Virus record (IMG/VR): IMGVR_UViG_3300015244_001400
Location: 1-64,000 of that record
Reading direction: 5' to 3' (one strand)
Source of the DNA: a virus
Lineage: Duplodnaviria; Caudoviricetes
DNA: 64,000 nucleotides
Positions within the stretch are counted from its first letter, which is position 1. Every line of letters starts with the position of its first letter. This document shows positions 1 through 16,434 of the stretch, one piece after another. The notes beneath the pieces are model-generated. The model searched no databases. It was not told where the DNA came from and was given only the letters and a program-made list of their open reading frames with translations. Both the position numbers and the translations under genes were made by a program.

Positions 1-738
1 TTCTACAACAGGAGTAGCTTCATTGTCAAATAAAAGAGCTTCATCTTCTACGGAAAGTTCTTCTCTATGAATCACTATAGGCTCAAATTCTTGCTCTACA
101 AAGGTGTCCTCTCCTTCATGGTGCAAAAAGTTTGGTAGTACTTGATTCATATAGGCTTCTAATTGTGTCAAAGACTTAGTCTTTTTGACTTCAAATAATC
201 TTGCAAAGGTATTCTTCTCAATTTCTGATGAGGGAATCACTCTTACCTCTATACCTTTTTCATAGCAAGATTGTAATATTTCTTTTTGAAGTCTCCTATT
301 CAAAGGAGTTAGACCAGGGTCAGTGAAAAAAGAAGTGGAATAAAATAAAACGTAATTATTGTAGGAGAAACTTTGACCTGCAAGAACTTCAGAGAAATGA
401 GCTCTTGTATGGTCTAAATAGGCTTCTTTTTTCATAGTAAAAACCATTAAAGGTAACTTACTTTCTGAAAAGAAAACGCCTTTTGCTATATAAAACTTTC
501 TATCATTAATGGGTATTTCCCTTGTAGTATAACCATACTGAAAACCATCTTTGATGTTCTTCAATGTGTTACCTTTTCTTAAAACATCTGTAAAACTAGG
601 TTTGCTATAAACATTAAAGCCTTCTAGATCTTCAGAATTTTGTAAAGCATACAAAGGAATATACTCATTAGCAATAAAAGCAGTCTTATCAAACTTAGAA
701 GGAATAAATCTTCCTAAGCCTTGTCTGCTAATTATCAT
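1..738 (-). CDS. Hypothetical protein, runs off the window edge (at least 246 aa), translationally coupled to the E1/ThiF gene
   Basis: Not in the ORF track. ATG at 738 overlaps the TGA of the ThiF gene (ATGA). I translated it without a stop to position 1: MIISRQGLGRFIPSKFDKTAF...EDEALLFDNEATPVVE. Confidence 0.85.
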   Translation of the reverse strand, partial: MIISRQGLGRFIPSKFDKTAFIANEYIPLYALQNSEDLEGFNVYSKPSFTDVLRKGNTLKNIKDGFQYGYTTREIPINDRKFYIAKGVFFSESKLPLMVFTMKKEAYLDHTRAHFSEVLAGQSFSYNNYVLFYSTSFFTDPGLTPLNRRLQKEILQSCYEKGIEVRVIPSSEIEKNTFARLFEVKKTKSLTQLEAYMNQVLPNFLHHEGEDTFVEQEFEPIVIHREELSVEDEALLFDNEATPVVE

Positions 739-1430
739 AACTCTGATTGAGTGAAGTTCATAGGAACTACAAATTCATAGTAGAAAGGGACTTCTCTGAT
801 AGTCTCTCCTGCATATACATTAGCTATGTGATTAGTAAAGAAAGCAGACATAAGAGAACCTATCATACCTGCAGTATGAGAAGTTTGTTTCATAGTACAA
901 GGAGCTTCATTTACAACACTGTCATGAAACAAATGCTCTCTTTCATACTTATCTGCATTTAGAGGAGTAACACAGAATATCTGTAATTGCTCCAATTCTA
1001 GTCTACCATCTATAAATATTGGTACATCCATATTAGGGGCAGAACCCCAAGATTGCTTCCAATTATGAAATAGAATGTGTCTGGCTTCCATATTATCAAA
1101 AGCAGAAAAACTATAATAATGATGAGGAGTACTACTAGTAATTCTCTCATTAAAAGTAGTAATTCTTCTTTCACAAAAGATATTCACCATTCTTTCTATA
1201 GCAGTTACTTTTGGAATACCTATATCTTCTTGTCTAAACAACTGCCCTCCTAAATTGTGGTCTTCAACAGTATCAAAATCATACAGATTAACTTTGAAAC
1301 CAATTTTAGTAAGGAAGAAAACTAACCAAGAACCAATACCACCAGCTCCACCTACTAAACAAATTTCATTGTTTCTAGGAAACCAAGGAGCATCTTTAAA
1401 TCTACTTTGTTGACTGTTTGTCTCTCTCAT
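735..1430 (-). CDS. ThiF/MoeB/E1-like ubiquitin-activating enzyme
   Basis: GGAGGIGSW nucleotide-binding loop, DFDTVEDHNLGGQ (ThiF DxDxVExxNL), FSAFDNMEAR, DGR motif, candidate catalytic Cys in PCTMKQ. Confidence 0.9.
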   Translation of the reverse strand: MRETNSQQSRFKDAPWFPRNNEICLVGGAGGIGSWLVFFLTKIGFKVNLYDFDTVEDHNLGGQLFRQEDIGIPKVTAIERMVNIFCERRITTFNERITSSTPHHYYSFSAFDNMEARHILFHNWKQSWGSAPNMDVPIFIDGRLELEQLQIFCVTPLNADKYEREHLFHDSVVNEAPCTMKQTSHTAGMIGSLMSAFFTNHIANVYAGETIREVPFYYEFVVPMNFTQSEL

Positions 1431-2598
1431 TTTCTATAAATTTATTAATCATGGAAGTAATAGTAGTAACAGTCAGTCTTACTTCAGGGTAAAGAACTAA
1501 CATATCATCTAATAAGTCAGTAAGCTCATGAGTATACTGAACAAAATCAACAGCAGATGCCTTTGGAAAGTGCTTAGCAAATTTAGGGGCATATTCATTA
1601 ATAACAGTTTTAGCTATCTCTTGAGGAGACAGATTAAACTCTGCTAATTCATCTAAGACATCTTCTAAATAGTCTTCATTTGGAGTAAACTCAATTGAGC
1701 TGCCAAACAAGTCTTTAGCAAACTCATAGATTTTAATAGCATGCATGTCTACTTCTTGAAGATCATCAAAATCTTCAAATAATTCAAGTGCAGGTTCTTT
1801 CCAATCATCAAACCATCTTTTAATTGGTTTTTCTGTTTGTTGAGTAGTAGTTCTGGACCAGTTATTTCCTCCTCCAGTACCTGTGTTATATTTAGCCCAA
1901 TCATTCTTAGGAAAGGTTTTCACAGGTTTAGGCTCCATGATTTTAGCCACTTGGGCAGTAAATGCTTCATCAACTATCTCTTGAATTAGAGGAGTTTGCA
2001 TCTCACAATCAAAGATAAAAAGCTTTTGAGTATTAACTTCAAAGTCTTGTGTTTCAATGACATAGTCATGGCCTTGTACATTTTTAGCTGTATAAGGAAC
2101 CTGTTTAATATCTTTTTTAGCTTCTCCAATGAAAGCAACTTTAGCTAGGAAATCCATAGCATTGTTTACAATCAAAGACAAGTAAAAATTGTGTGCTGGA
2201 GCATTATCATTTAGCTCAGCCATGTCTGTACCTGAAAAGAACACTGCCATACTATTATGACTGTGAATATGTCCTAGCTTCCAAGTACATCTTTCTTCAA
2301 AATCTTCTTCAATAAAATCCATAAATCTATCATCAAGATTATACTCGGTATAAGCTTGAGAACCCATATCTAAGGGAAGGATTGTTTTTAAAGTTATTTT
2401 GAAAGTTTCAGGATTTTCAATACTACCTTCTGTGGTATAAAATAGGGCTCCTGACCATTCTACTTTTGATATCTTTTTACAAAGATACTGTATCTGATGT
2501 AATACCTCTACTGGCATTATCACTGGTATGATAGAGCTTAGTTGCACTCTTGACAACTGCTTTCTCATAGATTCTTGACTCAAGTTCTCTAATGACAT
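1402..2598 (-). CDS. JAB/MPN+ (JAMM) metallopeptidase with an acidic C-terminal extension; true start may be the ATG near 2568
   Basis: KVEWSG (catalytic Glu) and GHIHSHNSMAVFFSGTD, an exact HxH-x7-SxxD JAMM motif. Confidence 0.9.
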   Translation of the reverse strand: MSLENLSQESMRKQLSRVQLSSIIPVIMPVEVLHQIQYLCKKISKVEWSGALFYTTEGSIENPETFKITLKTILPLDMGSQAYTEYNLDDRFMDFIEEDFEERCTWKLGHIHSHNSMAVFFSGTDMAELNDNAPAHNFYLSLIVNNAMDFLAKVAFIGEAKKDIKQVPYTAKNVQGHDYVIETQDFEVNTQKLFIFDCEMQTPLIQEIVDEAFTAQVAKIMEPKPVKTFPKNDWAKYNTGTGGGNNWSRTTTQQTEKPIKRWFDDWKEPALELFEDFDDLQEVDMHAIKIYEFAKDLFGSSIEFTPNEDYLEDVLDELAEFNLSPQEIAKTVINEYAPKFAKHFPKASAVDFVQYTHELTDLLDDMLVLYPEVRLTVTTITSMINKFIENERDKQSTK

Positions 2599-3670
2599 AA
2601 TCTAAAAAATTAGGATAAACAATATGATCTTCTAATGACACAGGTTTTGATAACCTAGTATCTTCTTTAATAATTTTAGGGTAAAGTTTTCTACCTCTAA
2701 AAAGTGTGTAATCTTCTGTGGAAGTGATTTTAACTGTGGCAGTAGCAATAGCATTTTCAGCTTTCATTTGTAGAAAGTGATTATAAGTATTTGGTACTCT
2801 ACTTACAAGAACAGTTTGATATTCACTAAAAGTCATGCAAGTTAAAGCTATTCTTTTAATGAATTCAGAAGCTCTGACATTAGGATGTATTCTATAAAGA
2901 CCTTCTGATATGTAGAAATCTACATCTAAAGGAATTTTTTGGTCCATAATTGTCTTTAAGACTTTACTAGCAGCTCTTGTATTAGTACTGTTAACTTTTA
3001 TAGAGTCAGCATTTTTAACTACTTCCATTCTAATAAAAGGTACTCCTTCTATAGATTCCCAAGTAATCATACTGTCTACACAAAATAGGAATAGTTCATA
3101 TCTATCCATATCCATATCTACACTAAACTCAGCCATCATTCTGCTTACATCAGTGTCTCCACCAACACAGAAATAACTACAATACAAAGGCTCTGATGTC
3201 CAATTTCTATGACTACTTAAATGACTTTGTTGATACCCTGAAAGAACTTCTAATTGTGTCTTAGAAAGTCTTCCACCTTCTAATTTAGAGGGATAAAGTG
3301 CATTTCCATTCCACTTAAATAGATGGATTACAAATAAGTCTTTTATCTCATGAGTTTTTCCTTGACTATTAGTAATAATGTACTTAGGATAAAAAACTTT
3401 AAAGTAAGGTAAAAAGAAATTTCCATCATAATAGAAATCTAAGTCAGCTTGATCTTTGTATTTAGCTTCAAACAAGTCCAATATTGCAAAGAAGTCAGCA
3501 GTCAGTTTAGTAACATTACTTAGACCCTCAGCTCCTTCAAAAACAATATAATCTTTCTCAATCAACTTCTTTAAGAATTTTTTATTCTTGTGTTGATTGG
3601 TTAAAACAGCATTGTGAAGAAGTCTAGCAATATTGCCACCTTCTCTATTAGCTTTTATATTTCTTGACAT
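2477..3670 (-). CDS. Putative prokaryotic E2-like (ubiquitin-conjugating fold) protein
   Basis: YQQSHL...YFCVGG resembles the His...Cys-Gly signature of prokaryotic E2 folds; lies between the Ubl and JAB/E1 genes. Confidence 0.6.
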   Translation of the reverse strand: MSRNIKANREGGNIARLLHNAVLTNQHKNKKFLKKLIEKDYIVFEGAEGLSNVTKLTADFFAILDLFEAKYKDQADLDFYYDGNFFLPYFKVFYPKYIITNSQGKTHEIKDLFVIHLFKWNGNALYPSKLEGGRLSKTQLEVLSGYQQSHLSSHRNWTSEPLYCSYFCVGGDTDVSRMMAEFSVDMDMDRYELFLFCVDSMITWESIEGVPFIRMEVVKNADSIKVNSTNTRAASKVLKTIMDQKIPLDVDFYISEGLYRIHPNVRASEFIKRIALTCMTFSEYQTVLVSRVPNTYNHFLQMKAENAIATATVKITSTEDYTLFRGRKLYPKIIKEDTRLSKPVSLEDHIVYPNFLDYVIRELESRIYEKAVVKSATKLYHTSDNASRGITSDTVSL

Positions 3671-3681
3671 AATAAAAAAAT

Positions 3682-3710
3682 TAAAGGGCTTATATTAAAC
3701 AAGCCCTTAA
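3682..3710 (-). terminator. Intrinsic terminator-like hairpin between the Ubl and E2-like genes
   Basis: Minus strand AAGGGCTT-GTTTAATAT-AAGCCCTT followed by TAATTTTTTTATT. Confidence 0.65.
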
Positions 3711-3716
3711 TTAATA

Positions 3717-4382
3717 CTAGTAACCTAGTTTTCTAGCTTCTTTAGCTAAACTACTTTCTTCAGAGTCAGAGTCAGAAAAACTAACTTCTTCTAAAAGTCT
3801 GTTCAAGTGCTTGTTAGCTTTGTAGTGAGAATCATAGCTATCCAAAGAAGAAATCAAGGCAATAGCCTCTTCTACTTTCTCAACATCAGTCAAGTCAGTA
3901 TCATCTACTTCTGGAAGAGTTCCAACAACTTCTCTAACTGATTCATTTACAGTTCTACTATTAGCAGTAGCAGTAGCTTTAACACAATGTATAGCAACTA
4001 ATTCTTGAACTGTTGCAGTTGGCAATTGAGTTACATTTCTGCCATTGATGCTAAACTTATTTTTATCTTCAGGATGGTTTAACAAATGTACTTTGATTGC
4101 AGCAAAACATTCTTTTCTGTCAAGAGCCCCTGACTTAGTTTGTCTTGGTCTTAAGAACAATCTAAAAGCAGTTGTTGGTAATACAGCTAAATCATTTACT
4201 AAGTCTGTCTTAGTAATGTTTTCAGCTGCTAATAATGATGACAAATCAAACCCTGCATTTCTTACAAGAGGTTGTAATTCTCCCCAAGTAGTTACATCAG
4301 TAGTTATTTTTTGCATTTGGCCACCTCTTGTGGCATAAATTGTTATCTCTCTAGAGATACCTGGAGCTTGTACTTCACTCAT
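3717..4382 (-). CDS. Ubiquitin-like (beta-grasp) N-terminal domain fused to a C-terminal helical domain
   Basis: The first ~85 aa show a beta-grasp-like pattern (REITIYAT...KITTDVTTWGELQPLV...AFRLFLRPRQTKSG); gene sits at the head of the E2/JAB/E1 cluster. Confidence 0.6.
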   Translation of the reverse strand: MSEVQAPGISREITIYATRGGQMQKITTDVTTWGELQPLVRNAGFDLSSLLAAENITKTDLVNDLAVLPTTAFRLFLRPRQTKSGALDRKECFAAIKVHLLNHPEDKNKFSINGRNVTQLPTATVQELVAIHCVKATATANSRTVNESVREVVGTLPEVDDTDLTDVEKVEEAIALISSLDSYDSHYKANKHLNRLLEEVSFSDSDSEESSLAKEARKLGY

Positions 4383-4393
4383 GATCTTAAATT

Positions 4394-4930
4394 TTAAAGA
4401 TTAATTAATTCTTTTTGTCCTTTCTTTTTCAAGAGGATATTTATGTGTTTAAGATTTATATATAACCCTTTGAACACATAATTATAATCTACATTCATAG
4501 GAACTTGATGAATTGTTTCATCATCATACTTGATCACATTATAAATAGTTTTAGCAGGTAGATTAGCTGTATAACTTTGTGATTTTGTTGTTGGCAATAG
4601 CCAAATACAAGGATTACTCCTCGCAATAAAATAGATAACTTTCTTAATGAATGAATCCCAATATTCACTATGGTCTGTGTTGGATGCCCCATAAGTTAGG
4701 GACATTTTAAGAAAAAATAGGCCTTCTTGTACTATAGGAGAAGCTTCTTCTCTAGCTATTAGCACAACCTTAATTTCTGATACAGGCATAGAAAAAACCC
4801 TGAAGACTTCATCAGCTTCAGGGTAATATTTTTCTTGAGGTAATATTTCATTCTTGAAATGAAGGAAAGCATCTGTGTTAAACTCACTCAGGAGTGGCCT
4901 CCAAGAGTAATGAATTAAACTAAAGTTCAT
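4394..4930 (-). CDS. Degenerate uracil-DNA glycosylase (family 1)-like protein, probably inactive
   Basis: IHYSWRPLL and YYPEADEVFRVFSMPVSEIKVVLI match the UNG N-terminus, but the catalytic GQDPY is replaced by AREEA and the protein is short. Confidence 0.65.
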   Translation of the reverse strand: MNFSLIHYSWRPLLSEFNTDAFLHFKNEILPQEKYYPEADEVFRVFSMPVSEIKVVLIAREEASPIVQEGLFFLKMSLTYGASNTDHSEYWDSFIKKVIYFIARSNPCIWLLPTTKSQSYTANLPAKTIYNVIKYDDETIHQVPMNVDYNYVFKGLYINLKHINILLKKKGQKELINL

Positions 4931-5955
4931 TCTGTAAAATCTTTTAAAAATTGATTAAATAAAAATTTGTCTTTAGCTATACAATCAGAAGGGTCTTTTA
5001 TCCCTTGTTCTAAGCTTCTTTCAGGAAGCCAAAGATTTCTTGCTTTACTTGGAATAAGGTTGTTGATGTGGTTCTTAACTTTCTCAGAAGCTATTATACC
5101 AGGTTGATCATTATCAAACCATACAAGTACACTAACAAAGGGTTTAATTAGCAGGTTTAAAGTTTCCTCACTAGGTATCATACCTTCATTTTGAAACCAA
5201 ACCACATTTTTACCATTATTCTTCAGTACTCTATAATCCTTATAAGACTTAGCAATGATTAATTCTTTACCAGAATGTAACAGGGAATTGATGCCACCTA
5301 CATCATTTTTAGTACAATTGGTTAAGAATCTTCTTTTGCCTTCTCTCATAGGAAAATAGATTTTCTTCCTAGATTCAGGAAAATCATTGTAACTGTATGC
5401 AATATCTTTGCAATCAATTATGTGACTCCCTGATTTGGTATTCAAAGCAAATAATTTTTGAACAGGAAAAACCCTGTCTTCAACTAAATGTTTCTTTTTA
5501 ATCTCATATTGAGACCAAAATTGAGCATCTACAGCATTAAACAGTCTTGCTTCAATTAGTAATTTGACTTTCTCTTTGACTATCTTTTTAGTCTCTTCTT
5601 TGTTTTCAATAGGCTTTAGACCTTCCTTACCTTGTATTAAGGTTTTATGGATATATTCTAAAGTCAAGTAAAAATTAGGGAATTTGAAAAAGTCTTGTAC
5701 CATATTGAAACAATCACTATGGGTTCTGCTATGAGCAAAATCAATAAAATAAAGAACTCCATTAGTATGGTAACTAAACCAACATCCTGCAGTTCTATCA
5801 TATCTTAAAGGAGATACTACATAGTCAAACTCTTGCGGAATATAATTGAACACTAATGCAAATATTTCTTCTTGAGTGACTAAACTAAGAATGCTTTCCT
5901 TGCAAATAAAACCTCTTCTATTTAAGTTATCTGAATTATAGTGATATGTGCTCAT
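4927..5955 (-). CDS. DNA primase (Toprim, crAss-like type)
   Basis: ELIIAKSYKDYRVL, WFQNEG and WFDNDQPG (Toprim DxD), IKDPSD; replication-module context. Confidence 0.8.
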   Translation of the reverse strand: MSTYHYNSDNLNRRGFICKESILSLVTQEEIFALVFNYIPQEFDYVVSPLRYDRTAGCWFSYHTNGVLYFIDFAHSRTHSDCFNMVQDFFKFPNFYLTLEYIHKTLIQGKEGLKPIENKEETKKIVKEKVKLLIEARLFNAVDAQFWSQYEIKKKHLVEDRVFPVQKLFALNTKSGSHIIDCKDIAYSYNDFPESRKKIYFPMREGKRRFLTNCTKNDVGGINSLLHSGKELIIAKSYKDYRVLKNNGKNVVWFQNEGMIPSEETLNLLIKPFVSVLVWFDNDQPGIIASEKVKNHINNLIPSKARNLWLPERSLEQGIKDPSDCIAKDKFLFNQFLKDFTE

Positions 5956-5983
5956 ATAAAAGAGGTTAGATTTTAATTAATTA

Positions 5984-6766
5984 TTACCAGGTTCCACCAG
6001 GATTACCAGCTATAGCACCAGCAGGTGCAGCAGCCATGGCTCCTCCTGTTGATGGAGCTCCACCAAGAACTTGTTGAGTACCTTTGTTACCTGTCATGAA
6101 ATTAGCATCTCTTTCAAAAGGATGTTTCTGTCCATTAGAGTTTTTGTAACAAAGAGAAGCATCTTCAGCTCTTTCTTCAGCCCATACTCCAGGTTGTGCA
6201 GGTACAATAAAGTAACCACCTTTCATATTCTTAGGTAAAGTTGGATAAGTCTTATCATTAAGACCACCATCTTGTTTTTTACCAAAATTCCATTGGAACT
6301 CTAAGAATAAATCAAGAGGTCTCTTGTCATACCCAATAGGTAATAAAGAACAAACTCTTGCAGCATAATCAGCAAAGCTCATTACTGGAGTTGCAAATGC
6401 AGCTCTTAAAGAATCTTCAGTTACACCTACTGCTTTCAAGTAGTGAGTTACTGTAGCATTTTGTTGAACCATCAAAGTGTTGAATCCAGCAATATACTCA
6501 GCAGAAGTCTTGTCTGTAATTTCAGTGTTGTTTTTGTCAACAACTCTGTCTACAGGGTTTAACCACTCTTTGTAAGATCTTTCTCCTACTTTAACTTCAA
6601 TCTCAATAGCTTCTCTAGCAGGTTGACCTTCTTTGGCAACATTTGGAGAGTAAGCAAATTTTGCTAATGTAGCAACACCAAAGTTTCCACCAAATTTAGC
6701 TCCACCTTTAGTTTTTAATGATTCATCTGAATCTGATACAAATCCGTATCCTAATACTTGTGACAT
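5984..6766 (-). CDS. Conserved replication-module protein, possibly ssDNA-binding
   Basis: Adjacent to the primase; beta-rich core with a flexible Gly/Ala C-terminal tail ending in Trp. Confidence 0.35.
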   Translation of the reverse strand: MSQVLGYGFVSDSDESLKTKGGAKFGGNFGVATLAKFAYSPNVAKEGQPAREAIEIEVKVGERSYKEWLNPVDRVVDKNNTEITDKTSAEYIAGFNTLMVQQNATVTHYLKAVGVTEDSLRAAFATPVMSFADYAARVCSLLPIGYDKRPLDLFLEFQWNFGKKQDGGLNDKTYPTLPKNMKGGYFIVPAQPGVWAEERAEDASLCYKNSNGQKHPFERDANFMTGNKGTQQVLGGAPSTGGAMAAAPAGAIAGNPGGTW

Positions 6767-6797
6767 AATAAGTCTTTTTTAATAATTAAACAATTTT

Positions 6798-7151
6798 TTA
6801 GTTCCAATCTGAAGAATCAGTACTTCCTACCATTTCTCCATTTACTAATGTAGCAGGAGTATCATTAGTGGCATCAGCTATTGGTCCAGGAACATGAGCT
6901 ACTTCTTCAGCAACATCATTAATGTCTTCAGTATCATCCTCAAGCTCAATACCTGTGTATTGTTTCTTAGCTTTTCTGTTTTTCAACTTAGGATGACCCC
7001 AAACCATTTTGTTCATATCTGACTGAGTTCTGCCATAGTGTTCAGCAATTTCTTTTCTGCTTTTACCTTGACCTAATAAACCTAAGACATCACTTATTGT
7101 GATTCTTAATACTTCAACTGGAGCTGTTTGAACAGCATTCTCTTGTGACAT
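6798..7151 (-). CDS. Small HTH-like DNA-binding protein with an acidic tail
   Basis: ISDVLGLLGQGKSRKEIAEHYGRTQSDMNK HTH-like pattern. Confidence 0.45.
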   Translation of the reverse strand: MSQENAVQTAPVEVLRITISDVLGLLGQGKSRKEIAEHYGRTQSDMNKMVWGHPKLKNRKAKKQYTGIELEDDTEDINDVAEEVAHVPGPIADATNDTPATLVNGEMVGSTDSSDWN

Positions 7152-7172
7152 AATGTATGAATTTAAAATTAT

Positions 7173-7403
7173 TTATAAATTTGCTTTGGGTTTTCTTGGC
7201 TTATAAACCCTCTTTTTCTTGATAGGTTTAGCCTCTTCTACAATTGTATCTTTTACAATTATAGGCTCTTTTTTGACTTCTTTTGTTTCTTCTTTTGAGT
7301 TACCTCTTACTAATGCCAAAGCAACAATAGCAACAATACAACCAGCAATAAAACAAAGGGTCAATAACAATAGATTATCCATAATATTCTGCAATTTTAG
7401 CAA
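7173..7403 (-). CDS. Small single-pass membrane protein with a basic C-terminus
   Basis: Hydrophobic LLLLTLCFIAGCIVAIVALALV followed by a Lys-rich tail. Confidence 0.6.
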   Translation of the reverse strand: MLKLQNIMDNLLLLTLCFIAGCIVAIVALALVRGNSKEETKEVKKEPIIVKDTIVEEAKPIKKKRVYKPRKPKANL

Positions 7404-8085
7404 CTACATATCCTAAATCATTAGGAATGAATTGTTTATCAAACATACCTACTGGAGATTTTGCAGATGAATACTGTTCATTCTCATTAGTCAAGAATTC
7501 CTTGACAGCTTTCTTCTCTGTAGCATCATATCTACTAATACCAATAAGAGTAACATCTACTTTACCCTCTACAGTCAAATACTCATCTACCATTTTACCT
7601 GTAGCTTTGTACTTCATATAGATTCTACCATCAGGTCCAGGAGTACTATCTCCATGAGCCAAAATGATAACATTTTTACCTGCAGCATCTAATTTCTCTA
7701 TGGCATCAAAGATTTTACCCATAAAGTAACCAATTTGCTTAGGTGCATCCCAACCTTTAGCCAAGGCATTAGCCATGTACCAATTCTGCATTACATAGTT
7801 TGAATCATCCCACACAATGTTTTTGTATGGACTATTCACTAAGTTTAAAAATATAGCTTCTATATCTTTTGCATTATCAGTAATAACTCTTCTTCCTGTT
7901 TTTAAGTCAGGCATGGTAGTTATTGGGTATGCTGCACCACTTCCTCTAAAAGGAAGAGGTTTTGAAGTAACTGATATTAAATAAGTTTCTTCAGGAACTA
8001 GGCCTACAATACCTAATTCAGGTATTTGTCCAATACTTGTGGACTTTCCAAACCCACTAGGGGCTAGCACTAAAATTTTAGGCAT
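7375..8085 (-). CDS. AAA-family P-loop ATPase (Sak4/AAA_24-like)
   Basis: APSGFGKST Walker A, IVWDDSNY Walker B, IILAHG, GKMVD. Confidence 0.8.
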   Translation of the reverse strand: MPKILVLAPSGFGKSTSIGQIPELGIVGLVPEETYLISVTSKPLPFRGSGAAYPITTMPDLKTGRRVITDNAKDIEAIFLNLVNSPYKNIVWDDSNYVMQNWYMANALAKGWDAPKQIGYFMGKIFDAIEKLDAAGKNVIILAHGDSTPGPDGRIYMKYKATGKMVDEYLTVEGKVDVTLIGISRYDATEKKAVKEFLTNENEQYSSAKSPVGMFDKQFIPNDLGYVVAKIAEYYG

Positions 8086-8094
8086 ACTTTTTCT

Positions 8095-9357
8095 TTAAAT
8101 AGTTAAAGGTTCAAATTTTTTTATGTCCCCATACATGTTTACTCTAAAGTGTTGAGGACAAACACTGTGTCTAGATTCAACTAAATGTATGGTTCTCATA
8201 TTTGGATATAAAAGAGATTTATCAGGTCTTCTAATTGCAGTACCAAAGTGTTTACTAAGATTAAACTTATCATCATTTGGGTTAAACATTGTAAAGATAT
8301 AATTACTATCCTCACTTAAATTACCTGTCTCTTTAATATCATCAGACTGTGGAAACAATCTGTCATCATCATACTGCCTTCTTCCAATGTCACTAACTGC
8401 TCTATTAAGGTGGATAATATGAACAAATGTAAAATTGCAAGTGTTTCTAAACTCTACAGCATATTCTGAGAATTTATCTACAGTTTCTTTCATCTTGAAA
8501 CCTCTTTCAGGTAGTAGCTTTCTTAAGTGGTCAGTTATAATAATGACATACTTAGCAGGGTTGTTAGGTTTATAACCTATCATCCTATTAAATGTTTGTC
8601 CATCTTTGACTGTAGTTCTATATAAGAACTCACCATTTTCTTTAGCATAACTTAAAAGATAGTTTCTGACTCCAGTAGGGTTGTCCTTGATCTCCAAGAA
8701 CTTAATTAACCCTTTAGAAACTTTTTCCCCTTTTTCACTATACTCTCCAAGTAAAGGAATTACTCTAGACCTATAAATGACTCTTATTTTAGAAACAAGG
8801 TCTTCAGGCACTTTAATAATTTCTTTGGGAGAGTCTGGGGTTGCAGTATCATATTCTAACTCGCCTTTTAAAAAGGCAGAAGATAAAGATACAACATTTT
8901 TCCCTTTATACAACTTTCCAGGGGGTAAATTTATCAAATATATACCATAATCTGCATTGAGAAAATGGGCTACAAAATCAAATTCTTTACTTACTCTGTC
9001 AATCTCAAAAGAGTTATAGATAAACTCAACATCAAGTATCTCACCATTTAACTTCTCGTACTCATTGTTAAGAGCAATCCTAGTTTCAGGGTCAGATGTT
9101 GTTTCAAGTCTAGTGGCAAGAGCCTCTAAAGAAGCTCTAATTTTGGCATTATGGTCCAATACATAAACAGCAGGTTCTATACAAAAACCTACATCTACAA
9201 AAGTTGACTTCCCTCCTTTTGGGGCAGCTCCAACAGTGTAAATTCTTCCTCTTTGGATACCATTAATTGCCTGTGAGATAGTCTTCAAACCTTCCCCCAT
9301 AGGAAGGCCTTTATTACTACCTTTTTGGCCTGCTTCAAATGCTGCTCTAAAATTCAT
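8095..9357 (-). CDS. dnaB: Replicative DnaB-like (SF4) helicase
   Basis: GAAPKGGKST Walker A, IIITDHLRKL, IIHLNR, DIKETGNLSEDSNYIF, IHLVESR. Confidence 0.85.
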   Translation of the reverse strand: MNFRAAFEAGQKGSNKGLPMGEGLKTISQAINGIQRGRIYTVGAAPKGGKSTFVDVGFCIEPAVYVLDHNAKIRASLEALATRLETTSDPETRIALNNEYEKLNGEILDVEFIYNSFEIDRVSKEFDFVAHFLNADYGIYLINLPPGKLYKGKNVVSLSSAFLKGELEYDTATPDSPKEIIKVPEDLVSKIRVIYRSRVIPLLGEYSEKGEKVSKGLIKFLEIKDNPTGVRNYLLSYAKENGEFLYRTTVKDGQTFNRMIGYKPNNPAKYVIIITDHLRKLLPERGFKMKETVDKFSEYAVEFRNTCNFTFVHIIHLNRAVSDIGRRQYDDDRLFPQSDDIKETGNLSEDSNYIFTMFNPNDDKFNLSKHFGTAIRRPDKSLLYPNMRTIHLVESRHSVCPQHFRVNMYGDIKKFEPLTI

Positions 9358-9929
9358 TATTGCATTCTTGAAGTTATGTCAACACTATCATTAGTTGAGG
9401 TATCAGCTATAGCTTCTCTATACTTTTCTACCCAACCTTCAAGTGCTGAAGTTCTGTCTCTACCTACACCTTTACTTATAAAGTAATGAGATGAGGTTAA
9501 ATATTCAGCACTGCTAAGAGTTCTGAAATACATTTTAGTTGCTCCAATAACATCTTCTTTTCTTACATCAGGGTTGTCAGCAAAAAATGCTTTCATTCTG
9601 GTAATACAATCTTTGTCTGGTGCTTTTCTTTTCTTGTTGACATTGCCAAACTCTGCATTCCATTCTTTAACCCAATCCCATTTGGTTTGACTTTCTCCTT
9701 CAAATAAAGGAATATGCCAAATAACCTCTCTATTAGCATCAATACCTAGAATGTTTGTAACATTCATTCTTTGAACTAGAAGAGTAGGAGTGTAAGAAGG
9801 TCTGCAATTAAAGAAGATAGATAAAAGATAAGCTACACCATCTTCTACAGGTATTGCATATTGTGCAAGTACTGTTCTAATCTGAGGATTTATTTTCATC
9901 TTTTTCAATTTTTTTAAATATGAATTCAA
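9357..9929 (-). CDS. Hypothetical protein (possible helicase loader/initiator)
   Basis: Clean ORF coupled to the DnaB gene; function inferred only from position. Confidence 0.5.
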   Translation of the reverse strand: MNSYLKKLKKMKINPQIRTVLAQYAIPVEDGVAYLLSIFFNCRPSYTPTLLVQRMNVTNILGIDANREVIWHIPLFEGESQTKWDWVKEWNAEFGNVNKKRKAPDKDCITRMKAFFADNPDVRKEDVIGATKMYFRTLSSAEYLTSSHYFISKGVGRDRTSALEGWVEKYREAIADTSTNDSVDITSRMQ

Positions 9930-10098
9930 TAATTTCTTTAACTTCTTCTAAAGCAAAAGTCTTATCAAAACTATTAATTACCATGTGTTTGTCTATTGTA
10001 CAGATAGCTCCAGGATTTTTCAATGCTTTGATTGTATCTATATCTACAGGTCTAATTTTACCTTTACCTAAGTATTGGTAATAAGCTAATAAACTCAT
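9877..10098 (-). CDS. Hypothetical protein
   Basis: Packed in-operon ORF overlapping both neighbours. Confidence 0.6.
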   Translation of the reverse strand: MSLLAYYQYLGKGKIRPVDIDTIKALKNPGAICTIDKHMVINSFDKTFALEEVKEIIEFIFKKIEKDENKSSD

Positions 10099-11366
10099 AT
10101 AAATCTTTCTTTAAAATTAGTAAATCTTACATGCTCTATCTTAGATTGATCTAAGTTTTCAATAGCAGTTTCTAACCACTTCTCATCTTGAGTTGATTCT
10201 GAAATTACTATGTATAAATGGGCTTCATGGCCAGGTCTAAACCTAATCAATCTCCCAATTCTTTGTACCAAGTCTTTCTCCTTAGAGTTTAACTGACCTA
10301 TAATACCTGAATCTACACCAGGAAAATTATGACCTTCATTGATTGCTTTTACACAAGATAATCTATTGATTGTCTCATTCTTAAAAGCATCATAAGATGC
10401 ACTGCCTGATTTAGAGTGATAAAATGTAGGGCAAACTTCTTCAGCTTGCTGTATATTACCACAAAATATTATAGTTCTGTCTTCTTTAGAGATTACTTTA
10501 TCCAACAGATACTTAATGACTTGAGTCTTAGAAGGTATCTTATAAATGAACTGCATTCTACCTAATATTGCAAATTTCAACTTACCTCTTCCTTGTGGAG
10601 TTTGGTCTCCCATACAAGATTGCACTCTTTTATTCCAATAGGAGTAAGCAGCAGATTCTGTAGTTGTAAAAGGATTGAGTTTATTCCCTCCAGGTATATT
10701 CTTTGTGGCATTATCCAAAGGCACTGTAATAACAGTAATCTTATATGGTGCTACAAATCCTAACCTAACAGCTTGATCTAAAGTTAGTTCATAAACAAGC
10801 TCAATACCTAACCTTCTAAGTATCTCTACTTTAACAAGGTCATTAGGTGGAGTTGCTGTAAGCAATACTGTTCTTTCAATATCATTGCTGATAAAGAATT
10901 CAGATGCTAACTCTGTAATATTATGCCCTTCATCAAGTATCACAATAGGATACTCATTACCTCCAATTTTAGAGGCAGAAGCATAACAAAGTCTTTCAGT
11001 ATGTTTCCATACATTTCTTGCATCCCACTTTTCAAACTCTTCTTTCCAATTCTCATCTCTAAGCTTTTCAGTTGGTACTAAAAGTGCTGCATGAAAATCA
11101 TTTTCAGGTTTAAAATAGTATTTAGCTAGTTCTACTGCTACTTTAGACTTACCTGAACCTGTAGCCATAGCTACCATTCCACCATTGTTTCTGATAACAG
11201 CTTGTATGGCTTCAGCCTGGACCTTCTCTCTAACTAAATTTACAAATTGAGTAGATTGATCAGGTTCTGTAATTTTCTCTCTTAAAACCTCTATTTTATC
11301 AATATAGGTTAAGATTGATTCAGGTTTTTTGAAGAGTACCTCTAACTCTCTAAAATACTTTTTCAT
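10095..11366 (-). CDS. Superfamily 2 (DExH) helicase
   Basis: MATGSGKS, ILDEGHN, LLTATPP, NEGHNFP, QRIGRLIR. Confidence 0.9.
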   Translation of the reverse strand: MKKYFRELEVLFKKPESILTYIDKIEVLREKITEPDQSTQFVNLVREKVQAEAIQAVIRNNGGMVAMATGSGKSKVAVELAKYYFKPENDFHAALLVPTEKLRDENWKEEFEKWDARNVWKHTERLCYASASKIGGNEYPIVILDEGHNITELASEFFISNDIERTVLLTATPPNDLVKVEILRRLGIELVYELTLDQAVRLGFVAPYKITVITVPLDNATKNIPGGNKLNPFTTTESAAYSYWNKRVQSCMGDQTPQGRGKLKFAILGRMQFIYKIPSKTQVIKYLLDKVISKEDRTIIFCGNIQQAEEVCPTFYHSKSGSASYDAFKNETINRLSCVKAINEGHNFPGVDSGIIGQLNSKEKDLVQRIGRLIRFRPGHEAHLYIVISESTQDEKWLETAIENLDQSKIEHVRFTNFKERFI

Positions 11367-11620
11367 GCAAAAAACTGTTTAATATACCCTATAGGTATGA
11401 TAATTAATTTTACTTTTTGTGTCACTCCTTGAGCTTTCAAGTTAGCAGCTGTTGAAATAAAGAAAGGATGCTTTTTATCTCTGATAAAAGTCAAAGGAAA
11501 TAAGCAATGAGCATGTAATTCTTCAACAATCTCTGATTCTGTAGCTCCTCCCTTTAGCACTGCTATAGGTTGAGACAAAAAGAAATTAAAAATGTCTGTG
11601 TAATTAATGACTTTCTGCAT
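11363..11620 (-). CDS. Hypothetical protein
   Basis: In-operon ORF overlapping both neighbours. Confidence 0.6.
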   Translation of the reverse strand: MQKVINYTDIFNFFLSQPIAVLKGGATESEIVEELHAHCLFPLTFIRDKKHPFFISTAANLKAQGVTQKVKLIIIPIGYIKQFFA

Positions 11621-13490
11621 AGTTTTTTCCTATATCTATACTTATTCCTAATGGTACATTGAGTTTCAATACCTCATTAGTAATTGCTATAGCTTTGTTA
11701 AGTTTATCCTTTACTTCTTGTTGCTCTGTCTTTAGAAATGTAAATCCAATTTCATCATGGTATTGAAGACTAATCTTAATACCTTGTTTCCTTACATTTC
11801 TAATGTGTGTGTCAAAACAGAATACTCCTGTACCTTGATTTAAGGTACTGAATCTATCTTTAGGTTGTCTTAAAGAATACCAAAAGCCACTAACAGGGTT
11901 ATATAACCACATTTGCTTTCCAACTTCCTTATAGACAGCATCATTAGTAATTTGCTTTACAGCTTTATTTCTTTCCCAATAGGTTTTATGTAGAGCTGTG
12001 GCTTCTGCCAATGACATACCTGTTGTTAAGGCTATCTTTGGTGGTCCTGCTCCATAAACACCTGAAAAGTTTACTACTTTTGCTTTTGTTCTGACTTTCT
12101 TATAAGAGGTTCCTTCTTTACCTTCTGTAGCTTCATACAATTTATGGTCAGCTACTTGTTCAGGTGTAAGCATACCTGATAATACTGCAATATCAAGATG
12201 AGGATCAAATCCTGGTATTCTCATTTGTATCACATAGTCAGGGTCATAGAAGTACATGTAATGTTGTTTGGTAGTATCTTCAAGAGAAGACATATCACTA
12301 CCACAGAACAAGTGGTCTTCATCTGGTGCTATAATAGCTCCTCTGATTTCCTTACCATAAGGCTTATCTACAGATGGTAGATTGGCAACAGGCTTCTTAT
12401 GTTTAAATCTAAGAGTATTAGTAAATCCTGCAACTTGAGATGCCATCTTACCTTGCTCATTAGAACACTCAAGAAATCCTTCTAGCACACCTACTCTATG
12501 CTGTAGCATAAATAGACCTTTAAGGTTTTCAAGAACAGGGTGAGTCTCTGCCAATAGAATAATGTTTGCACATAATCTTTTGTCATTGTCCTGTAGTTGA
12601 GGTATTGCTCTGATTTCTCCTGCCTTATTAGGAACATGTTTAAATACAGTTGGTTTCCAACCCAAATTGAATAGCCAATCTTTAAGCTGAGATATTGAAG
12701 TAGGATTAGGTTCTTCTATAGATTTAACTATAGAGATTTCTCCTTCATAATCAGCTTCCAAATTGTGTTCAGAAAGTAATTCTAACCAGGCTACACCAGC
12801 TTTAGTTAATTCTTCTTTTACTGTAAACATCTTACTTGGTTTAGTCTTGATAAGATACTTAACTTGCTTTGGCATTGCTGCTATCAAGGCTAGTTTTCTT
12901 TCTTCTACAAGTTCATTCAAAGTTTTAAGAGTTCTTTTACAGTATTCTCTGTCAATTGTCAATGGGTATTGCTCCTGTTCTGCAGCACAATCTAATTTCC
13001 AAGTGAGGTAATACATTATCCTTTCTATAGGTTCTTCAGCATAGATATCTTTAAGATAACTAATGAATTTACCAAATATAATAGAGTTGATTACCACATC
13101 TGAAGAGCATCTGTGCACATAATCTTCTGTTGCTAAATTTTCCCAATCAGCAATGTGTGGTTTAGCTACTCCTACAGTTTGTCCCCAAGACTCTAACCCA
13201 TGCTCTTTTCTTTCAGGGTATAAATACCAAGAAAGAGCTAAAGTATCAATTATAGCCCCTGTATGCACATATCCTGTGAGCTTTTTAATAGCAGGGAAAT
13301 CATACCTAACAACATTATGTCCTATAAGAACATCTTGATTAGATAAGAAGTTTACTAGCTCCCAAGTATTAGTGACAACAGTTTCTCCTAATAATTGATT
13401 ACCTTCATAAGTGTGGGCTACAAGACAGTGAAAAGTAGTAAGAGTTTCCAGTAAACCATCAGTCTCTATATCAAAGATAGTATATCTCAT
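11604..13490 (-). CDS. polA: Family A DNA polymerase with a 3'-5' exonuclease domain
   Basis: ExoI FDIETDG, ExoII GHNVVRYD, motif A GSDMSSLE, motif B RTKAKVVNFSGVYG (Phe at the E. coli 762-equivalent site), motif C QYHDE. Confidence 0.95.
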   Translation of the reverse strand: MRYTIFDIETDGLLETLTTFHCLVAHTYEGNQLLGETVVTNTWELVNFLSNQDVLIGHNVVRYDFPAIKKLTGYVHTGAIIDTLALSWYLYPERKEHGLESWGQTVGVAKPHIADWENLATEDYVHRCSSDVVINSIIFGKFISYLKDIYAEEPIERIMYYLTWKLDCAAEQEQYPLTIDREYCKRTLKTLNELVEERKLALIAAMPKQVKYLIKTKPSKMFTVKEELTKAGVAWLELLSEHNLEADYEGEISIVKSIEEPNPTSISQLKDWLFNLGWKPTVFKHVPNKAGEIRAIPQLQDNDKRLCANIILLAETHPVLENLKGLFMLQHRVGVLEGFLECSNEQGKMASQVAGFTNTLRFKHKKPVANLPSVDKPYGKEIRGAIIAPDEDHLFCGSDMSSLEDTTKQHYMYFYDPDYVIQMRIPGFDPHLDIAVLSGMLTPEQVADHKLYEATEGKEGTSYKKVRTKAKVVNFSGVYGAGPPKIALTTGMSLAEATALHKTYWERNKAVKQITNDAVYKEVGKQMWLYNPVSGFWYSLRQPKDRFSTLNQGTGVFCFDTHIRNVRKQGIKISLQYHDEIGFTFLKTEQQEVKDKLNKAIAITNEVLKLNVPLGISIDIGKNYAESH

Positions 13491-13493
13491 AAG

Positions 13494-13895
13494 TTAGTAG
13501 TCTAATATTCCTGAGTCTCTTATAGATTCATATAATTCATCCTTTTGTGAAGGGAACAATACTGTTTTTTGTACAATTTCTTTTAGTATCTCTTTTCTTG
13601 AAGAAATATCTAATACATTAGTTCCTTGAAGTGCATTTTCAATTCTTAAACACAATTCAGAAACTACTGTGGCTCCTTTTTTCATATGATCTTCCTCATC
13701 AATTTCTTTTGGAATGATAAGTTTAGATACATACTCCTCTAAGTGAGGTAATACAATATTTAAAGATTGTTTGGCTTTTTGTACCAATAGTCCATTTTCT
13801 TTCATTGTTTCAAACCTATCAAGGAGAGCTACTGAAAGAGAAAGACTTTCTATTACTACATCACTAAGCTGTTGAGAGTTTAGTTTATTTAACAT
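13494..13895 (-). CDS. Hypothetical protein
   Basis: In-operon ORF. Confidence 0.65.
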   Translation of the reverse strand: MLNKLNSQQLSDVVIESLSLSVALLDRFETMKENGLLVQKAKQSLNIVLPHLEEYVSKLIIPKEIDEEDHMKKGATVVSELCLRIENALQGTNVLDISSRKEILKEIVQKTVLFPSQKDELYESIRDSGILDY

Positions 13896-14175
13896 AGTCT
13901 ATCTCATTGATAAACAAATTGTTATAAGTTCTTCCATTCTTTTCAGAGCCTATAAACACAAAACCAATTTCAACTTGATCTCCAGGTCTAATACCTAGTT
14001 TATCAATTCTTGAAATCATCACATCTCTAATCTCAAAGAAAGCTTTTTGACCATCTTCTGTGGTAATAGTGACTACAGCTCTTTTCTTTGTTGGTCTACC
14101 TTCAACAACAATAGCTTCAGGAGTAGACACTTTTTCAAAATACCCCATAAAAGGAGTTAACAATTTCTTGTTCAT
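13885..14175 (-). CDS. DUF3127-like OB-fold protein (putative ssDNA-binding)
   Basis: FFEIR...IRPGDQVEIGFVFIGSEKNGRTYNNL matches the Bacteroidota DUF3127 pattern as I recall it. Confidence 0.6.
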   Translation of the reverse strand: MNKKLLTPFMGYFEKVSTPEAIVVEGRPTKKRAVVTITTEDGQKAFFEIRDVMISRIDKLGIRPGDQVEIGFVFIGSEKNGRTYNNLFINEIDYVK

Positions 14176-14177
14176 AA

Positions 14178-15449
14178 TTAAACATTGTATAAAATTAATA
14201 AATCACTAGCTCTGGTTATTCCTGTATAGAACAACCTTTGTTTTTCTTTTTCATTCTGATTAAAACTTATGTCTTTGACATTTAGAACAGTAGTTTCATA
14301 GGTACTACCTTGACTTTTGTGGATTGTAAGTGCATGATTGTATTTAAAGCTTGCAAAGATATTTAAAAAACTATTTCTTTGTTCAAATGTTAATAAGTTT
14401 TGCTTACAATTTTTATTCATTATTGCAGCATACCTTTTAAACAGAGCAAGAGAAGAGTCATCTAATACTAAGATATCTTTGTTAATAGAATAAACTACAA
14501 ATTTAGCTTCTTCAGTTATCTTTTCTTTGTGAGTACTACTCAATAAAACTTCCATAGTCTTTGTAAACTTATGTAGCTCTTCTACTTTTACAGTCTCATT
14601 GGTATTATACTTATTATAAGGGGCATCAAACACAATAGTTTCTCCAAGCTCTATTTTAGCTGGATAATCTCCATATATTCTCTGTCTTACTAAAGCATTA
14701 ATCTTATCAACTTCCTTATTAGTCCAAGCAAGATATTTAAACTCATCAGTTCCATTGACTTTGGCTAACTCTTCAATAATCTTTGCTAAGTTTTGAGTAT
14801 AAAGATATCCAATATCTTGACCTTCAGGCCCTGCTAACAAATTGGATTTTCTCTCCCAAATATTAGGTAGATTTCTACTAAGAGTAATGATAGGATTGCC
14901 ATTACCTTGTCTAATGATTTCAGTAAGCTCTACCTCTGCATAATCTTGATGAAATATAGGGCTATCATCTTCTCCTACAGGATTGATTTGCTTGCCATCA
15001 CCCACAAATATTACTGTGGTATTCTGAGCTGCAGCACATTCCTCTATGGTTTTAACCATTTCAGAATCTACCATTGAAGCTTCATCAATAACCCAATAAT
15101 CAATATTGTTTAGTGGTGGCCAATTAGGATTAGGACTTGACCTAAATATCCTCTCTCCTGTTCTTTTATCTGTAATACTCCTATAATGCAAAGCACTGTG
15201 TATTGTAGTGAATTTAACTTCATCAACTTGTACTTTGGTTCTGATTACAGATAATGCTTTATGTGTAGGAGCTGAACACATAATTCTTTTAGCTTTTGTT
15301 TTTGTAGTAAGGTGTTTGACTATTGTGTGTACTAGCCAAGTTTTCCCTACTCCTGCAGAACCTTTTAAGAGAATTCTGTCTTCTCTAGCATCAATGAGTT
15401 CTATAACTTCATTGAACTTTTCTCTCTGATGGGTTGTTAAACTACTCAT
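14178..15449 (-). CDS. SF1B Dda/RecD-like helicase
   Basis: KGSAGVGKT, APTHKA, VIDEASMV, VGDGKQINPV, TEIIRQ, ALTIHKSQGSTY, YTGITRA. Confidence 0.9.
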   Translation of the reverse strand: MSSLTTHQREKFNEVIELIDAREDRILLKGSAGVGKTWLVHTIVKHLTTKTKAKRIMCSAPTHKALSVIRTKVQVDEVKFTTIHSALHYRSITDKRTGERIFRSSPNPNWPPLNNIDYWVIDEASMVDSEMVKTIEECAAAQNTTVIFVGDGKQINPVGEDDSPIFHQDYAEVELTEIIRQGNGNPIITLSRNLPNIWERKSNLLAGPEGQDIGYLYTQNLAKIIEELAKVNGTDEFKYLAWTNKEVDKINALVRQRIYGDYPAKIELGETIVFDAPYNKYNTNETVKVEELHKFTKTMEVLLSSTHKEKITEEAKFVVYSINKDILVLDDSSLALFKRYAAIMNKNCKQNLLTFEQRNSFLNIFASFKYNHALTIHKSQGSTYETTVLNVKDISFNQNEKEKQRLFYTGITRASDLLILYNV

Positions 15450-15464
15450 TTATCTACTAATGGT

Positions 15465-15504
15465 AAAAAAAAGATAAAGTGAGGGGTAAGTCTCACTTTA
15501 TCTT
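15465..15504 (-). terminator. Intrinsic terminator
   Basis: AAGATAAAGTGAG-8nt-CTCACTTTATCTT hairpin with a T-tract on the minus strand. Confidence 0.8.
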
Positions 15505-15517
15505 TAAGTTAATAATA

Positions 15518-16156: not shown

Positions 16157-16434
16157 AATAATTTGATTTTGTTTTCTAATTGTTTCATAGTAAAGGTAAT
16201 AACCTATTCCACTCTCAGATTAATGATTTGATTTTTATCTATATTTTACCTTTGGTTAATTAAAAAGTCAGAAAAGTTTTCTTAAAGATCATGGCAATGC
16301 CAAACACTTTCTATTATTCTGACCCAAACCTCTGTGCTACACTTGTCTATGACCAGATCACTTACAATATTTGAGCTCAAGAGCTGTATTGTTTTAGGAT
16401 GCAATGGGATTGAGAACTCTGTTGACAATGTTTG

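Follow-up and report, generated by a model that had tools for sequence, protein, structure and literature searches.

A four-gene cassette in the replication module of a crAss-like phage

We analysed the first 64 kb (positions 1 to 64,000; hereafter the window) of the IMG/VR record IMGVR_UViG_3300015244_001400, a Caudoviricetes contig of 90,032 bp with an estimated completeness of 96%, and focused on four tightly packed genes on its minus strand at 735-4382, which encode a ubiquitin-like protein (Ubl) precursor (protein C), an E2-like protein (protein B), a JAB peptidase, and an E1-like enzyme. An initial annotation, made from the letters of this DNA alone, had described the four genes as adjacent and co-oriented and had read them as a complete Ubl conjugation cassette. 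All four open reading frames (ORFs) were recovered on the minus strand at the coordinates it had given, and each motif that it had named (GxGxxG and PCT in the E1-like enzyme, the JAMM motif in the peptidase, SHL...FCVG in protein B, and KSG in protein C) was read again in the DNA. The JAB ORF is likewise present, but 2598 is probably not its start; translation most likely begins at the ATG at 2517, because homologues are called with ~371 amino acids (aa) and conserved sequence begins at that Met. The features of the locus are as follows.

3717..4382, minus strand: Ubl precursor, protein C, 221 aa, with a predicted beta-grasp at residues ~6-79
4128-4136, minus strand: K83-S84-G85 of protein C
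3674..3708, minus strand: terminator-like hairpin with a T-run and a 10-bp GC-rich stem (4 G-C pairs), between the Ubl and E2-like genes
2477..3670, minus strand: E2-like protein B, 397 aa, with a predicted UBC/UEV-like fold at residues ~24-219
3218-3226 and 3161-3172, minus strand: SHL and FCVG motifs of protein B
1402..2517 (ORF to 2598), minus strand: JAB/JAMM (MPN+) metallopeptidase, 371 aa, assigned from its JAMM motif, weak Pfam matches, and ESM Atlas neighbours
2458-2460, 2257-2265, and 2224-2235, minus strand: JAMM residues Glu, HSH, and SGTD
735..1430, minus strand: E1-like (ThiF-family) adenylating enzyme, single domain, 231 aa, assigned from Pfam ThiF and a family profile against the PDB
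1329-1352, 1080-1097, and 894-902, minus strand: GGAGGIGS, DNMEAR, and PCT motifs of the E1-like enzyme
1..738, minus strand, running off the window: fifth gene, X, starting 4 nt inside the end of the E1-like gene

The record is a circularly permuted, essentially complete crAss-like phage genome, since joining its contig ends restores an intact fifth gene of 357 aa with the C-terminus found in its relatives. Positions 1-17,000 of the window hold, on the minus strand, a replication module in the order DnaB-type helicase, Sak4-like ATPase, two small genes, primase, uracil-DNA glycosylase (UDG)-like gene, the four cassette genes, the fifth gene, resolvase, and exonuclease. This order agrees with that of Flavobacterium phage FpV4 and Bacteroides phage crAss001, so the placement of the cassette in a replication arm, as first proposed, is upheld by a recognizable crAss-like replication module. 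A megablast search of positions 1-9000 against GenBank phages returned no match. The crAss001 homologues of the cassette genes sit in the middle (replication-stage) transcription module of that phage, which is thought to be read by the host RNA polymerase (PMC8375218).

The genes are closely spaced throughout. A gap of 46 nt separates the genes for proteins C and B, the genes for B and JAB overlap by 41 nt (2477-2517), those for JAB and the E1-like enzyme by 29 nt, and that for the E1-like enzyme overlaps gene X by 4 nt. The 41-nt overlap also occurs in close relatives, an arrangement that suggests translational coupling. A programmed frameshift fusing B to JAB was considered in view of this conserved overlap and then set aside, because JAB, which is in the +1 frame, starts at an ATG of its own and its homologues are called as separate proteins.

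Protein C resembles a Ubl made as a precursor

Protein C had no match to Pfam, NCBIfam, or PADLOC models. Its AlphaFold model (pLDDT, the predicted local distance difference test, of 72) shows a strand-strand-helix-strand-strand arrangement over residues 11-79, followed by a helical region (89-136), a disordered linker, and an acidic helical C-terminus ending ..GY. Because the multi-domain models of proteins B and C gave weak whole-model Foldseek E-values (0.04-0.2), fold comparison also required VIA-align, a method independent of Foldseek. The best 50 VIA-align rows for protein C were all beta-grasps of the ubiquitin-like, UBX, PB1, or DIX types (Z 5.0-6.2, with 62-85 residues aligned), which bears out, at the level of a predicted model, the beta-grasp N-terminus first suggested for 3717..4382. 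Foldseek assigned probabilities of 0.98 to a plant Ubl and 0.92 to MoaD.

At the end of the beta-grasp, a K-(S/A)-G motif occurs in every one of the 33 family members, crAss001 Gp79 among them, and Gly85 within it is invariant, while sequence and length diverge directly past the Gly, giving tails of 64-252 aa. The pLDDT of the model also dips to 60 over residues 81-90, at the proposed cleavage site. An invariant Gly followed by a diverging tail is, by analogy with known precursors, the signature of a processing site, and exposure of Gly85 to an E1 would require cleavage at this point.

The tail ends of the Ubl precursors (window 3717-3800, minus strand) are acidic, and an aromatic residue stands either last or no more than three residues before the end (..REAREMGY, ..LGEGF, ..KMFDFVD). 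These ends, and that of FpV4 gene X (..EDLPF), resemble the C-terminal tips of single-stranded DNA-binding protein (SSB) and T7 gp2.5. Such tips dock replisome partners.

Directly 3' of the Ubl gene lies the hairpin with its T-run, the strongest terminator-like site on the minus strand within 1-9500. A GC-rich hairpin and T-run follow the Ubl gene directly in all of the related loci checked (24/24; junctions in L001-L042), including FpV4, crAss001, and cr128_1; the position is kept and the hairpin sequences are unrelated, with RNAfold energies of -14 to -31 kcal/mol. A partial terminator or 3' stabiliser at this site would give more modifier than enzymes, as for a stoichiometric tag.

Protein B is a sequence orphan with a predicted UBC fold

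Sequence searches with protein B found no match in Pfam (E-values up to 10), NCBIfam, or PADLOC, either with the protein alone or with 27 members of its family, and these searches included the UQ_con and Prok-E2_A-E models; a family profile also had no match to PDB sequences, among them the solved E2s. The family is nonetheless large, comprising 3,203 clusters at 50% identity (E <=1e-3), and in BFVD the proteins related to it in structure come from crAss-like phages and are uncharacterised.

An AlphaFold model built from 53 homologues (mean pLDDT 83) was compared with 48,161 chains using VIA-align. Approximately 40 of the best 50 rows are E2, UEV, or RWD domains, led by the Tsg101 UEV (Z 5.9), the GCN2 RWD (5.3), and Ubc13 (5.0), with many E2s at Z 4-5; UBE2O, UbcH5b, Ubc9, Atg3, and BubB are also among the matches. 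In a second comparison, with the Tsg101 UEV, the model reached Z 6.5 with an rmsd (root-mean-square deviation) of 3.5 Å over 133 of 142 residues (128-137 across comparisons). Since the Z values are moderate, the argument for a UBC fold is carried by the consistency of the list and the near-complete coverage of the domain. A UBC fold comprises helix 1, a four-stranded sheet, and helices 2-3, and the claim of such a fold for 2477..3670, on which the initial annotation had staked its reading, survives as a predicted UBC/UEV fold.

Conservation within the family points to a candidate active site. A 27-sequence alignment reaching down to 18-25% identity has 14 invariant columns, including S149-H150-L151 and F167-C168-x-G170, and a W-E-S-x-E-G-x-P motif lies at residues 204-211. 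H150 and C168 fall between the last sheet strand (125-138) and the long helix (174-184) of the model, and the length of the loop from His to Cys varies within the family. E2s carry their HPN...Cys elements between strand 4 and helix 2. The C-terminal domain (~225-385) resembles no known fold. Taken together, we consider protein B a probable UBC-fold protein, as modelled, with a candidate catalytic Cys, and probably the representative of a new, sequence-orphan E2-like family.

The JAB peptidase and the E1-like enzyme

The JAB domain occupies residues ~1-135 of its protein and holds E20, H85-x-H87, S95, and D98 in the arrangement E..HxH-x7-S-x2-D. Conservation of this signature is at least 95% in 35 family members, crAss001 Gp77 among them; the remaining ~235 aa, towards the C-terminus, vary. 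Matches to the Pfam Prok-JAB model (PF14464) were weak, with the window protein scoring 14 bits against a gathering cut-off of 25 (E 0.04, under threshold), sub-threshold matches in 34 of 37 relatives (best 0.0054), and crAss001 Gp77 reaching 4.9e-4 (20.4 bits). The PADLOC CBASS JAB model matched residues 4-109 of the window protein with an E-value of 0.009, and the closest ESM Atlas clusters with a name are viral ones carrying Prok-JAB (score 0.96, with 204 of 256 features in common). A family profile searched against PDB sequences recovered no JAB, just spurious metallo-beta-lactamase and KorB rows. Because sequence profiles were weak or failed, the identity of the protein rests on its motif, the weak Pfam matches, its ESM Atlas neighbours, and its genomic context, and on these grounds we accept it as a predicted MPN+ peptidase. 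In its C-terminal ~80 residues (1402-1700, minus strand) there are faint matches to KorB/ParB DNA-binding (E 0.7-1.3) and DUF4435 (E 0.02) models, which are too weak to interpret.

The E1-like enzyme passes the Pfam ThiF model (PF00899) with 58.4 bits against a gathering cut-off of 28.1 (E 7.5e-16), and its family profile matches UBA5 in the PDB at 1.8e-8, together with MccB, SAE2, TcdA, UBA3, MoeB, and ThiF; the earlier assignments of E1 and JAB both hold. The enzyme scored far under all cut-offs of the NCBIfam ThiF, MoeB, PRTRC_ThiF, and SAMP E1 models, with a best equivalog score of 50.3 bits against a cut-off of 159 and ThiF and MoeB scores 3- to 10-fold short. Invariant residues in 34 family members include R10, G28xGG31, D51xD53, K74, D112-N113..R117, an I-D-G-R motif, and C178 (within PCT). 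The position corresponding to the NLxRQ motif of E1s reads N59-L-G-G-Q63 (1242-1256, minus strand), with Gly replacing Arg, and this residue is Gly or Ser in all 34 members examined, the rest of the ATP-site set being intact and invariant. As far as can be judged from sequence, this is a minimal E1-like protein that consists of a single domain and has one unusual substitution in its active site, and it is probably homodimeric.

The cassette is conserved across crAss-like phages

The order primase, UDG-like gene, Ubl, E2-like gene, JAB, E1, and fifth gene recurs in ~40 uncultured phage contigs in IMG/VR. A scan with the E1-like protein yielded 43 viral loci, and in all 38 with a match of at least 48% identity the genes for JAB, B, and C lie upstream, in unchanged order. 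A further locus (L041), whose E1 is 38% identical, lies on a contig without the upstream flank, and the remaining four (L043-L046) have distant, partial ThiF matches of another subfamily and are without the other three genes. The same order is present in the annotated phages FpV4 (gp53-50), crAss001 (Gp79-76), and cr128_1. Their shared conservation, in one fixed order, in ~40 independent phage contigs and three annotated genomes puts the association of the four genes far beyond chance. At an overall identity of 20-40%, the residues of the named motifs are either invariant or conserved to at least 95%.

JAB and E1 homologues were also found in 74-79 GenBank phage records, mostly of Flavobacterium and Bacteroides crAss-like phages, and the hosts or sources of the cassette include Flavobacterium, Bacteroides, and freshwater and marine metagenomes. 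In GenBank, crAss001 Gp76 is labelled 'thiamine biosynthesis protein' and Gp77 'metalloprotease domain containing protein', and Gp78 and Gp79 are hypothetical.

Among metagenome-assembled genomes (MAGs), the E1 profile found 11 contigs, 10 of which show the partner genes where the contig reaches far enough; the eleventh (L057) matches ThiF only weakly and in part, and the other genes are all missing from it. A search of genome contigs with the JAB alignment found no relatives. The MAGs that bear the cassette are labelled with unrelated taxa, including Nitrososphaerota, Promethearchaeia, and Clostridium. In one such case, a Puia sp. MAG (L052; L047 and L050 are likewise MAG cases), the cassette lies within a Chitinophagaceae contig of 373 kb; this could reflect a crAss-like element that is integrated or episomal, or an assembly error. 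A distant cassette on a Tissierellales MAG contig (L055:2985-7729) encodes a Ubl ending ..NIDGG followed by L, and a B-like protein of 637 aa.

Comparison with known Ubl systems

The initial annotation had likened the cassette to the Bil, Bub, CBASS, and PRTRC systems. The likeness in components stands; by sequence, membership in any of them does not. The closest counterpart in composition is Bil (BilABCD), a bacterial anti-phage ubiquitination system that corresponds to operon type 6d/6c of Iyer et al. 2006 (Chambers et al., PMC10557695), and which has the same four components in the same order, Ubl, E2, JAB, and E1 matching BilA, BilB, BilC, and BilD (PMC11601596). A residue that follows the Gly of BilA has to be trimmed off, and the catalytic Cys of BilB is preceded by an extended loop (PMC10557695). 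Trimming of the Ubl after a Gly, as proposed for the cassette, a long or variable loop ahead of the E2 Cys, and the absence of an encoded E3 are likenesses between the two. They differ in that the Ubl tail consists of one or a few residues in Bil and of 64-252 aa in the cassette, in that the Bil E1 has tandem IAD-AAD domains with an inserted Cys domain whereas that of the cassette is a 231-aa single domain, and in that Bil is a bacterial defence system, whereas the cassette belongs to a virulent-type phage and lies within its replication operon. PADLOC models of BilA, BilB, and BilC had no match in the cassette, and that of BilD matched only at E 0.031.

Type I Bub (6E.1; Ye et al., PMC11601596) resembles the cassette in making its Ubl as a fusion and in having a small homodimeric E1 without a separate Cys domain, and the JAB domain of BubCD cuts the BubAB Ubl fusion immediately after a conserved Gly (PMC11601596). 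The fold of protein B also matches the BubB E2 structure (9eav_D), at Z 4.2. Bub nevertheless encodes Ubl-E2 and JAB-E1 fusions, uses oxyester (Ser) intermediates, lacks an E1 Cys, and includes the serine protease BubE, whereas the cassette has four separate genes with an invariant Cys on both the E1-like enzyme and protein B, and Pfam scans of the cassette had no match to DUF6527 (BubE).

The PRTRC cassettes of plasmids and integrative elements (NCBIfam TIGR03734-03742) likewise combine, on mobile elements, a ThiF-family E1, a JAB protein (A), an E2-like protein (B), and a Ubl (C). The PRTRC_ThiF model gave the E1-like enzyme 36.4 bits against a cut-off of 144.75, the PRTRC A, B, C, D, E, and F models had no match, and the cassette includes no ParB-related gene. 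Type II CBASS shares E1, E2, and JAB chemistry in a phage-bacterium conflict, and its components gave the best PADLOC matches of the E1-like enzyme (Cap2, E 1e-5) and of JAB (Cap3, E 0.009). It has no Ubl, as the C-terminus of the CD-NTase is conjugated, its Cap2 is an E2-E1 fusion, and it is host-encoded, and the cassette is otherwise in all three respects.

A precedent among phages is TAPI of lambda and T1, a Ubl with a C-terminal domain that the adjoining TAPK (JAB plus NlpC/P60) is predicted to release (PMC1779556). TAPI is similar to protein C as a phage Ubl with a conserved terminal Gly, then a linker and a second domain, encoded near a JAB protein; TAPI and TAPK belong to a tail module without E1 or E2, whereas the cassette has E1 and E2-like genes and sits in a replication module. 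For ThiS-ThiF and MoaD-MoeB, equivalog scores were low and no sulfur-transfer partner was found in the genome: the 96%-complete sequence holds no rhodanese or PP-loop ATPase gene, in agreement with the initial observation that a sulfur-carrier context is missing. Because the sequence tests for Bil, Bub, PRTRC, CBASS Cap2/Cap3, and ThiS/ThiF all failed, we set the cassette apart as what appears to be a phage version of a Ubl-conjugation cassette, one that would work like the known systems and is a member of none.

Neighbouring genes

Gene X, when joined to the contig end (89,700-90,032), encodes 357 aa ending ..IELVDDTE, and its acidic C-terminus is common to close relatives. Nearly all loci checked have an ORF directly behind the E1 gene (in a few, after a ~200-nt gap), and FpV4 gp49 and crAss001 Gp75 hold this position. 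The protein, which may be part of the module, has no Pfam match, and its PHROG family is one of unknown function. On the other side of the cassette, the UDG-like gene (4394-4930, minus strand) matches uracil-DNA glycosylase models only weakly (E 8e-7, 29 bits against cut-offs of 143-186), and the GQDPY motif that is kept in a distant relative (L038:2162-2854) is absent from the window protein.

A proposed conjugation pathway and its alternatives

With four folds or families assigned, their catalytic-type residues kept, a conserved Gly followed by a diverging tail, a fixed gene order, and wide conservation, we consider it rather probable that the cassette is a phage-borne Ubl protein-conjugation module that is transcribed with the replication genes. 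From these features we infer the cleavage, adenylation, thioester formation, and conjugation steps, as well as the targets and biological role, that are proposed here. Protein C would be made as a precursor, with the hairpin behind its gene providing more transcript than for the enzymes. The JAMM peptidase would cut after Gly85, yielding an 85-residue Ubl with a C-terminal Gly and an acidic C-terminal fragment, and the small, probably homodimeric E1-like enzyme would then adenylate Gly85. The Ubl would be passed as a thioester to Cys178 of the E1-like enzyme, to Cys168 of protein B, or to both, and protein B, with its extra C-terminal domain and no E3 partner, would transfer it to target lysines. 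These targets may be phage or host proteins met during genome replication, and the JAMM peptidase could also reverse the mark. The initial annotation had further raised the countering of host Ubl-based defences; conjugation itself and any such role are both put forward conditionally.

Several points weigh against this pathway. Protein B has no sequence similarity to any E2 family and its fold match is moderate (Z <=6.5); C168 is a candidate for the catalytic Cys judged from the order of secondary-structure elements alone; and the best fold matches of protein B are UEV domains. UEV domains are catalytically dead E2 variants that bind ubiquitin without transferring it. For the E1-like enzyme, the chemistry may differ from that of known E1s because the family is without the conserved Arg of the NLxRQ ATP-binding motif, and the C-terminal half, which contains C178, does not align in sequence with solved E1s, so that C178 can be equated only tentatively with the crossover-loop Cys of ThiF/MoeB. 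Lastly, the tail of the Ubl precursor is long and locally conserved, which a mere propeptide would not need.

Some of these points are shared with a processing-only alternative, in which JAB releases the acidic, aromatic-tipped C-terminal fragment, which may bind the replisome, much as in eukaryotic ubiquitin-ribosomal protein fusions, while protein B acts as a UEV-like adaptor and the E1-like protein as a regulator or chaperone. The UEV domains that head the fold matches of protein B, which bind without transfer, the acidic tails with a terminal Y, F, or W as in SSB-type tips, and the missing NLxRQ Arg would all fit. However, the tail is the least conserved part of the precursor, whereas the Ubl, its Gly, the His and Cys of protein B, the nucleotide-binding residues of the E1-like enzyme, and Cys178 are invariant, and an intact E1 active-site set kept without adenylation is hard to explain; we therefore consider this alternative unlikely. 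A role as a sulfur carrier of the ThiS, MoaD, CysO, or QbsE kind, in which JAB trims the Ubl, the E1 adenylates it, and a thiocarboxylate feeds nucleotide, tRNA, or DNA modification during replication, strikes us as similarly improbable. Sulfur-carrier operons combining JAB, E1, and Ubl are known (PMC1779556), the cassette lies among genes of nucleic-acid metabolism, and its E1 is of the ThiF family with ThiF and MoeB models as its best NCBIfam matches, but all of these are far under their cut-offs, 3- to 10-fold in the case of the ThiF and MoeB equivalogs. Neither a rhodanese nor a PP-loop ATPase accompanies the cassette in the genome, the sulfur-carrier systems known so far offer no role for the strictly co-conserved UBC-fold protein with its invariant His and Cys, and the Ubl ends K-S-G rather than G-G, although the distant version does end ..DGG.

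In hosts, systems built in the same way serve as anti-phage defences (PMC10557695, PMC11601596), and the phage enzymes might instead act on host Bil, Bub, or type II CBASS, stripping Ubl or cGAS conjugates or loading a decoy Ubl. The matches of JAB and the E1-like enzyme to the Cap3 and Cap2 models would be in keeping with such counter-defence, yet they and the other defence-model matches are weak (E 1e-5 to 0.03). Moreover, JAB alone would suffice for stripping, yet all four genes, with the phage's own Ubl among them, are kept together in phages of very different hosts, and the fixed position in the replication operon together with broad conservation points to a core function and not an accessory anti-defence set, so that we give counter-defence little credence. 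It is also conceivable, but highly improbable, that the E1-like enzyme acts on a non-protein or peptide substrate, as TcdA does in forming ct6A on tRNA or MccB and PaaA in the chemistry of peptide C-termini, with its neighbours being incidental. MccB, PaaA, and TcdA do score as well as true E1s in the profile comparison with the PDB; against this, every locus with enough flank keeps the four genes together, their reading frames overlapping or abutting, and the distant loci that carry ThiF alone (L043-L046) are those of another subfamily. Conjugation explains better than any alternative why the terminal Gly, the active-site set of the E1, and the two Cys residues are all invariant together. A broader form of the conjugation model, according to which crAss-like phages run their own Ubl cascade as a core replication programme, with the other half of the precursor docking at the replisome through its SSB-like acidic aromatic tail and a new E2 family tagging replication or host proteins, is possible but on present evidence doubtful.

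Implications for crAss-like phages

The crAss-like phages are the most abundant phages of the human gut and are common in waters. In the openly searchable literature (subscription papers were outside the search), we found no paper linking crAss-like phages or Crassvirales to ThiF, JAB, or ubiquitin-like systems, and neither Yutin 2021 nor the crAss001 paper refers to ThiF, JAB, or ubiquitin. To our knowledge, bacterial Ubl conjugation has been shown only for host defence systems (Bil, Bub, and type II CBASS). A complete phage-owned version would reverse this picture, with the virus holding the tagging machinery, and, if the proposal is true, there would be a viral 'ubiquitin code' inside bacteria that is independent of the host defence versions. 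The cassette is fixed in the replication operon of a large phage lineage, with the E2-like protein alone accounting for ~3,200 clusters at 50% identity, and its presence in the cultured phages crAss001 and FpV4 makes cleavage, thioester formation, and targets directly testable. Four crAss001 genes (Gp76-Gp79) that are now 'hypothetical' or misnamed would gain a function, and a sequence-orphan E2-like family, together with a minimal E1 without the canonical ATP-site Arg, would bear on the evolution of the ubiquitin machinery.

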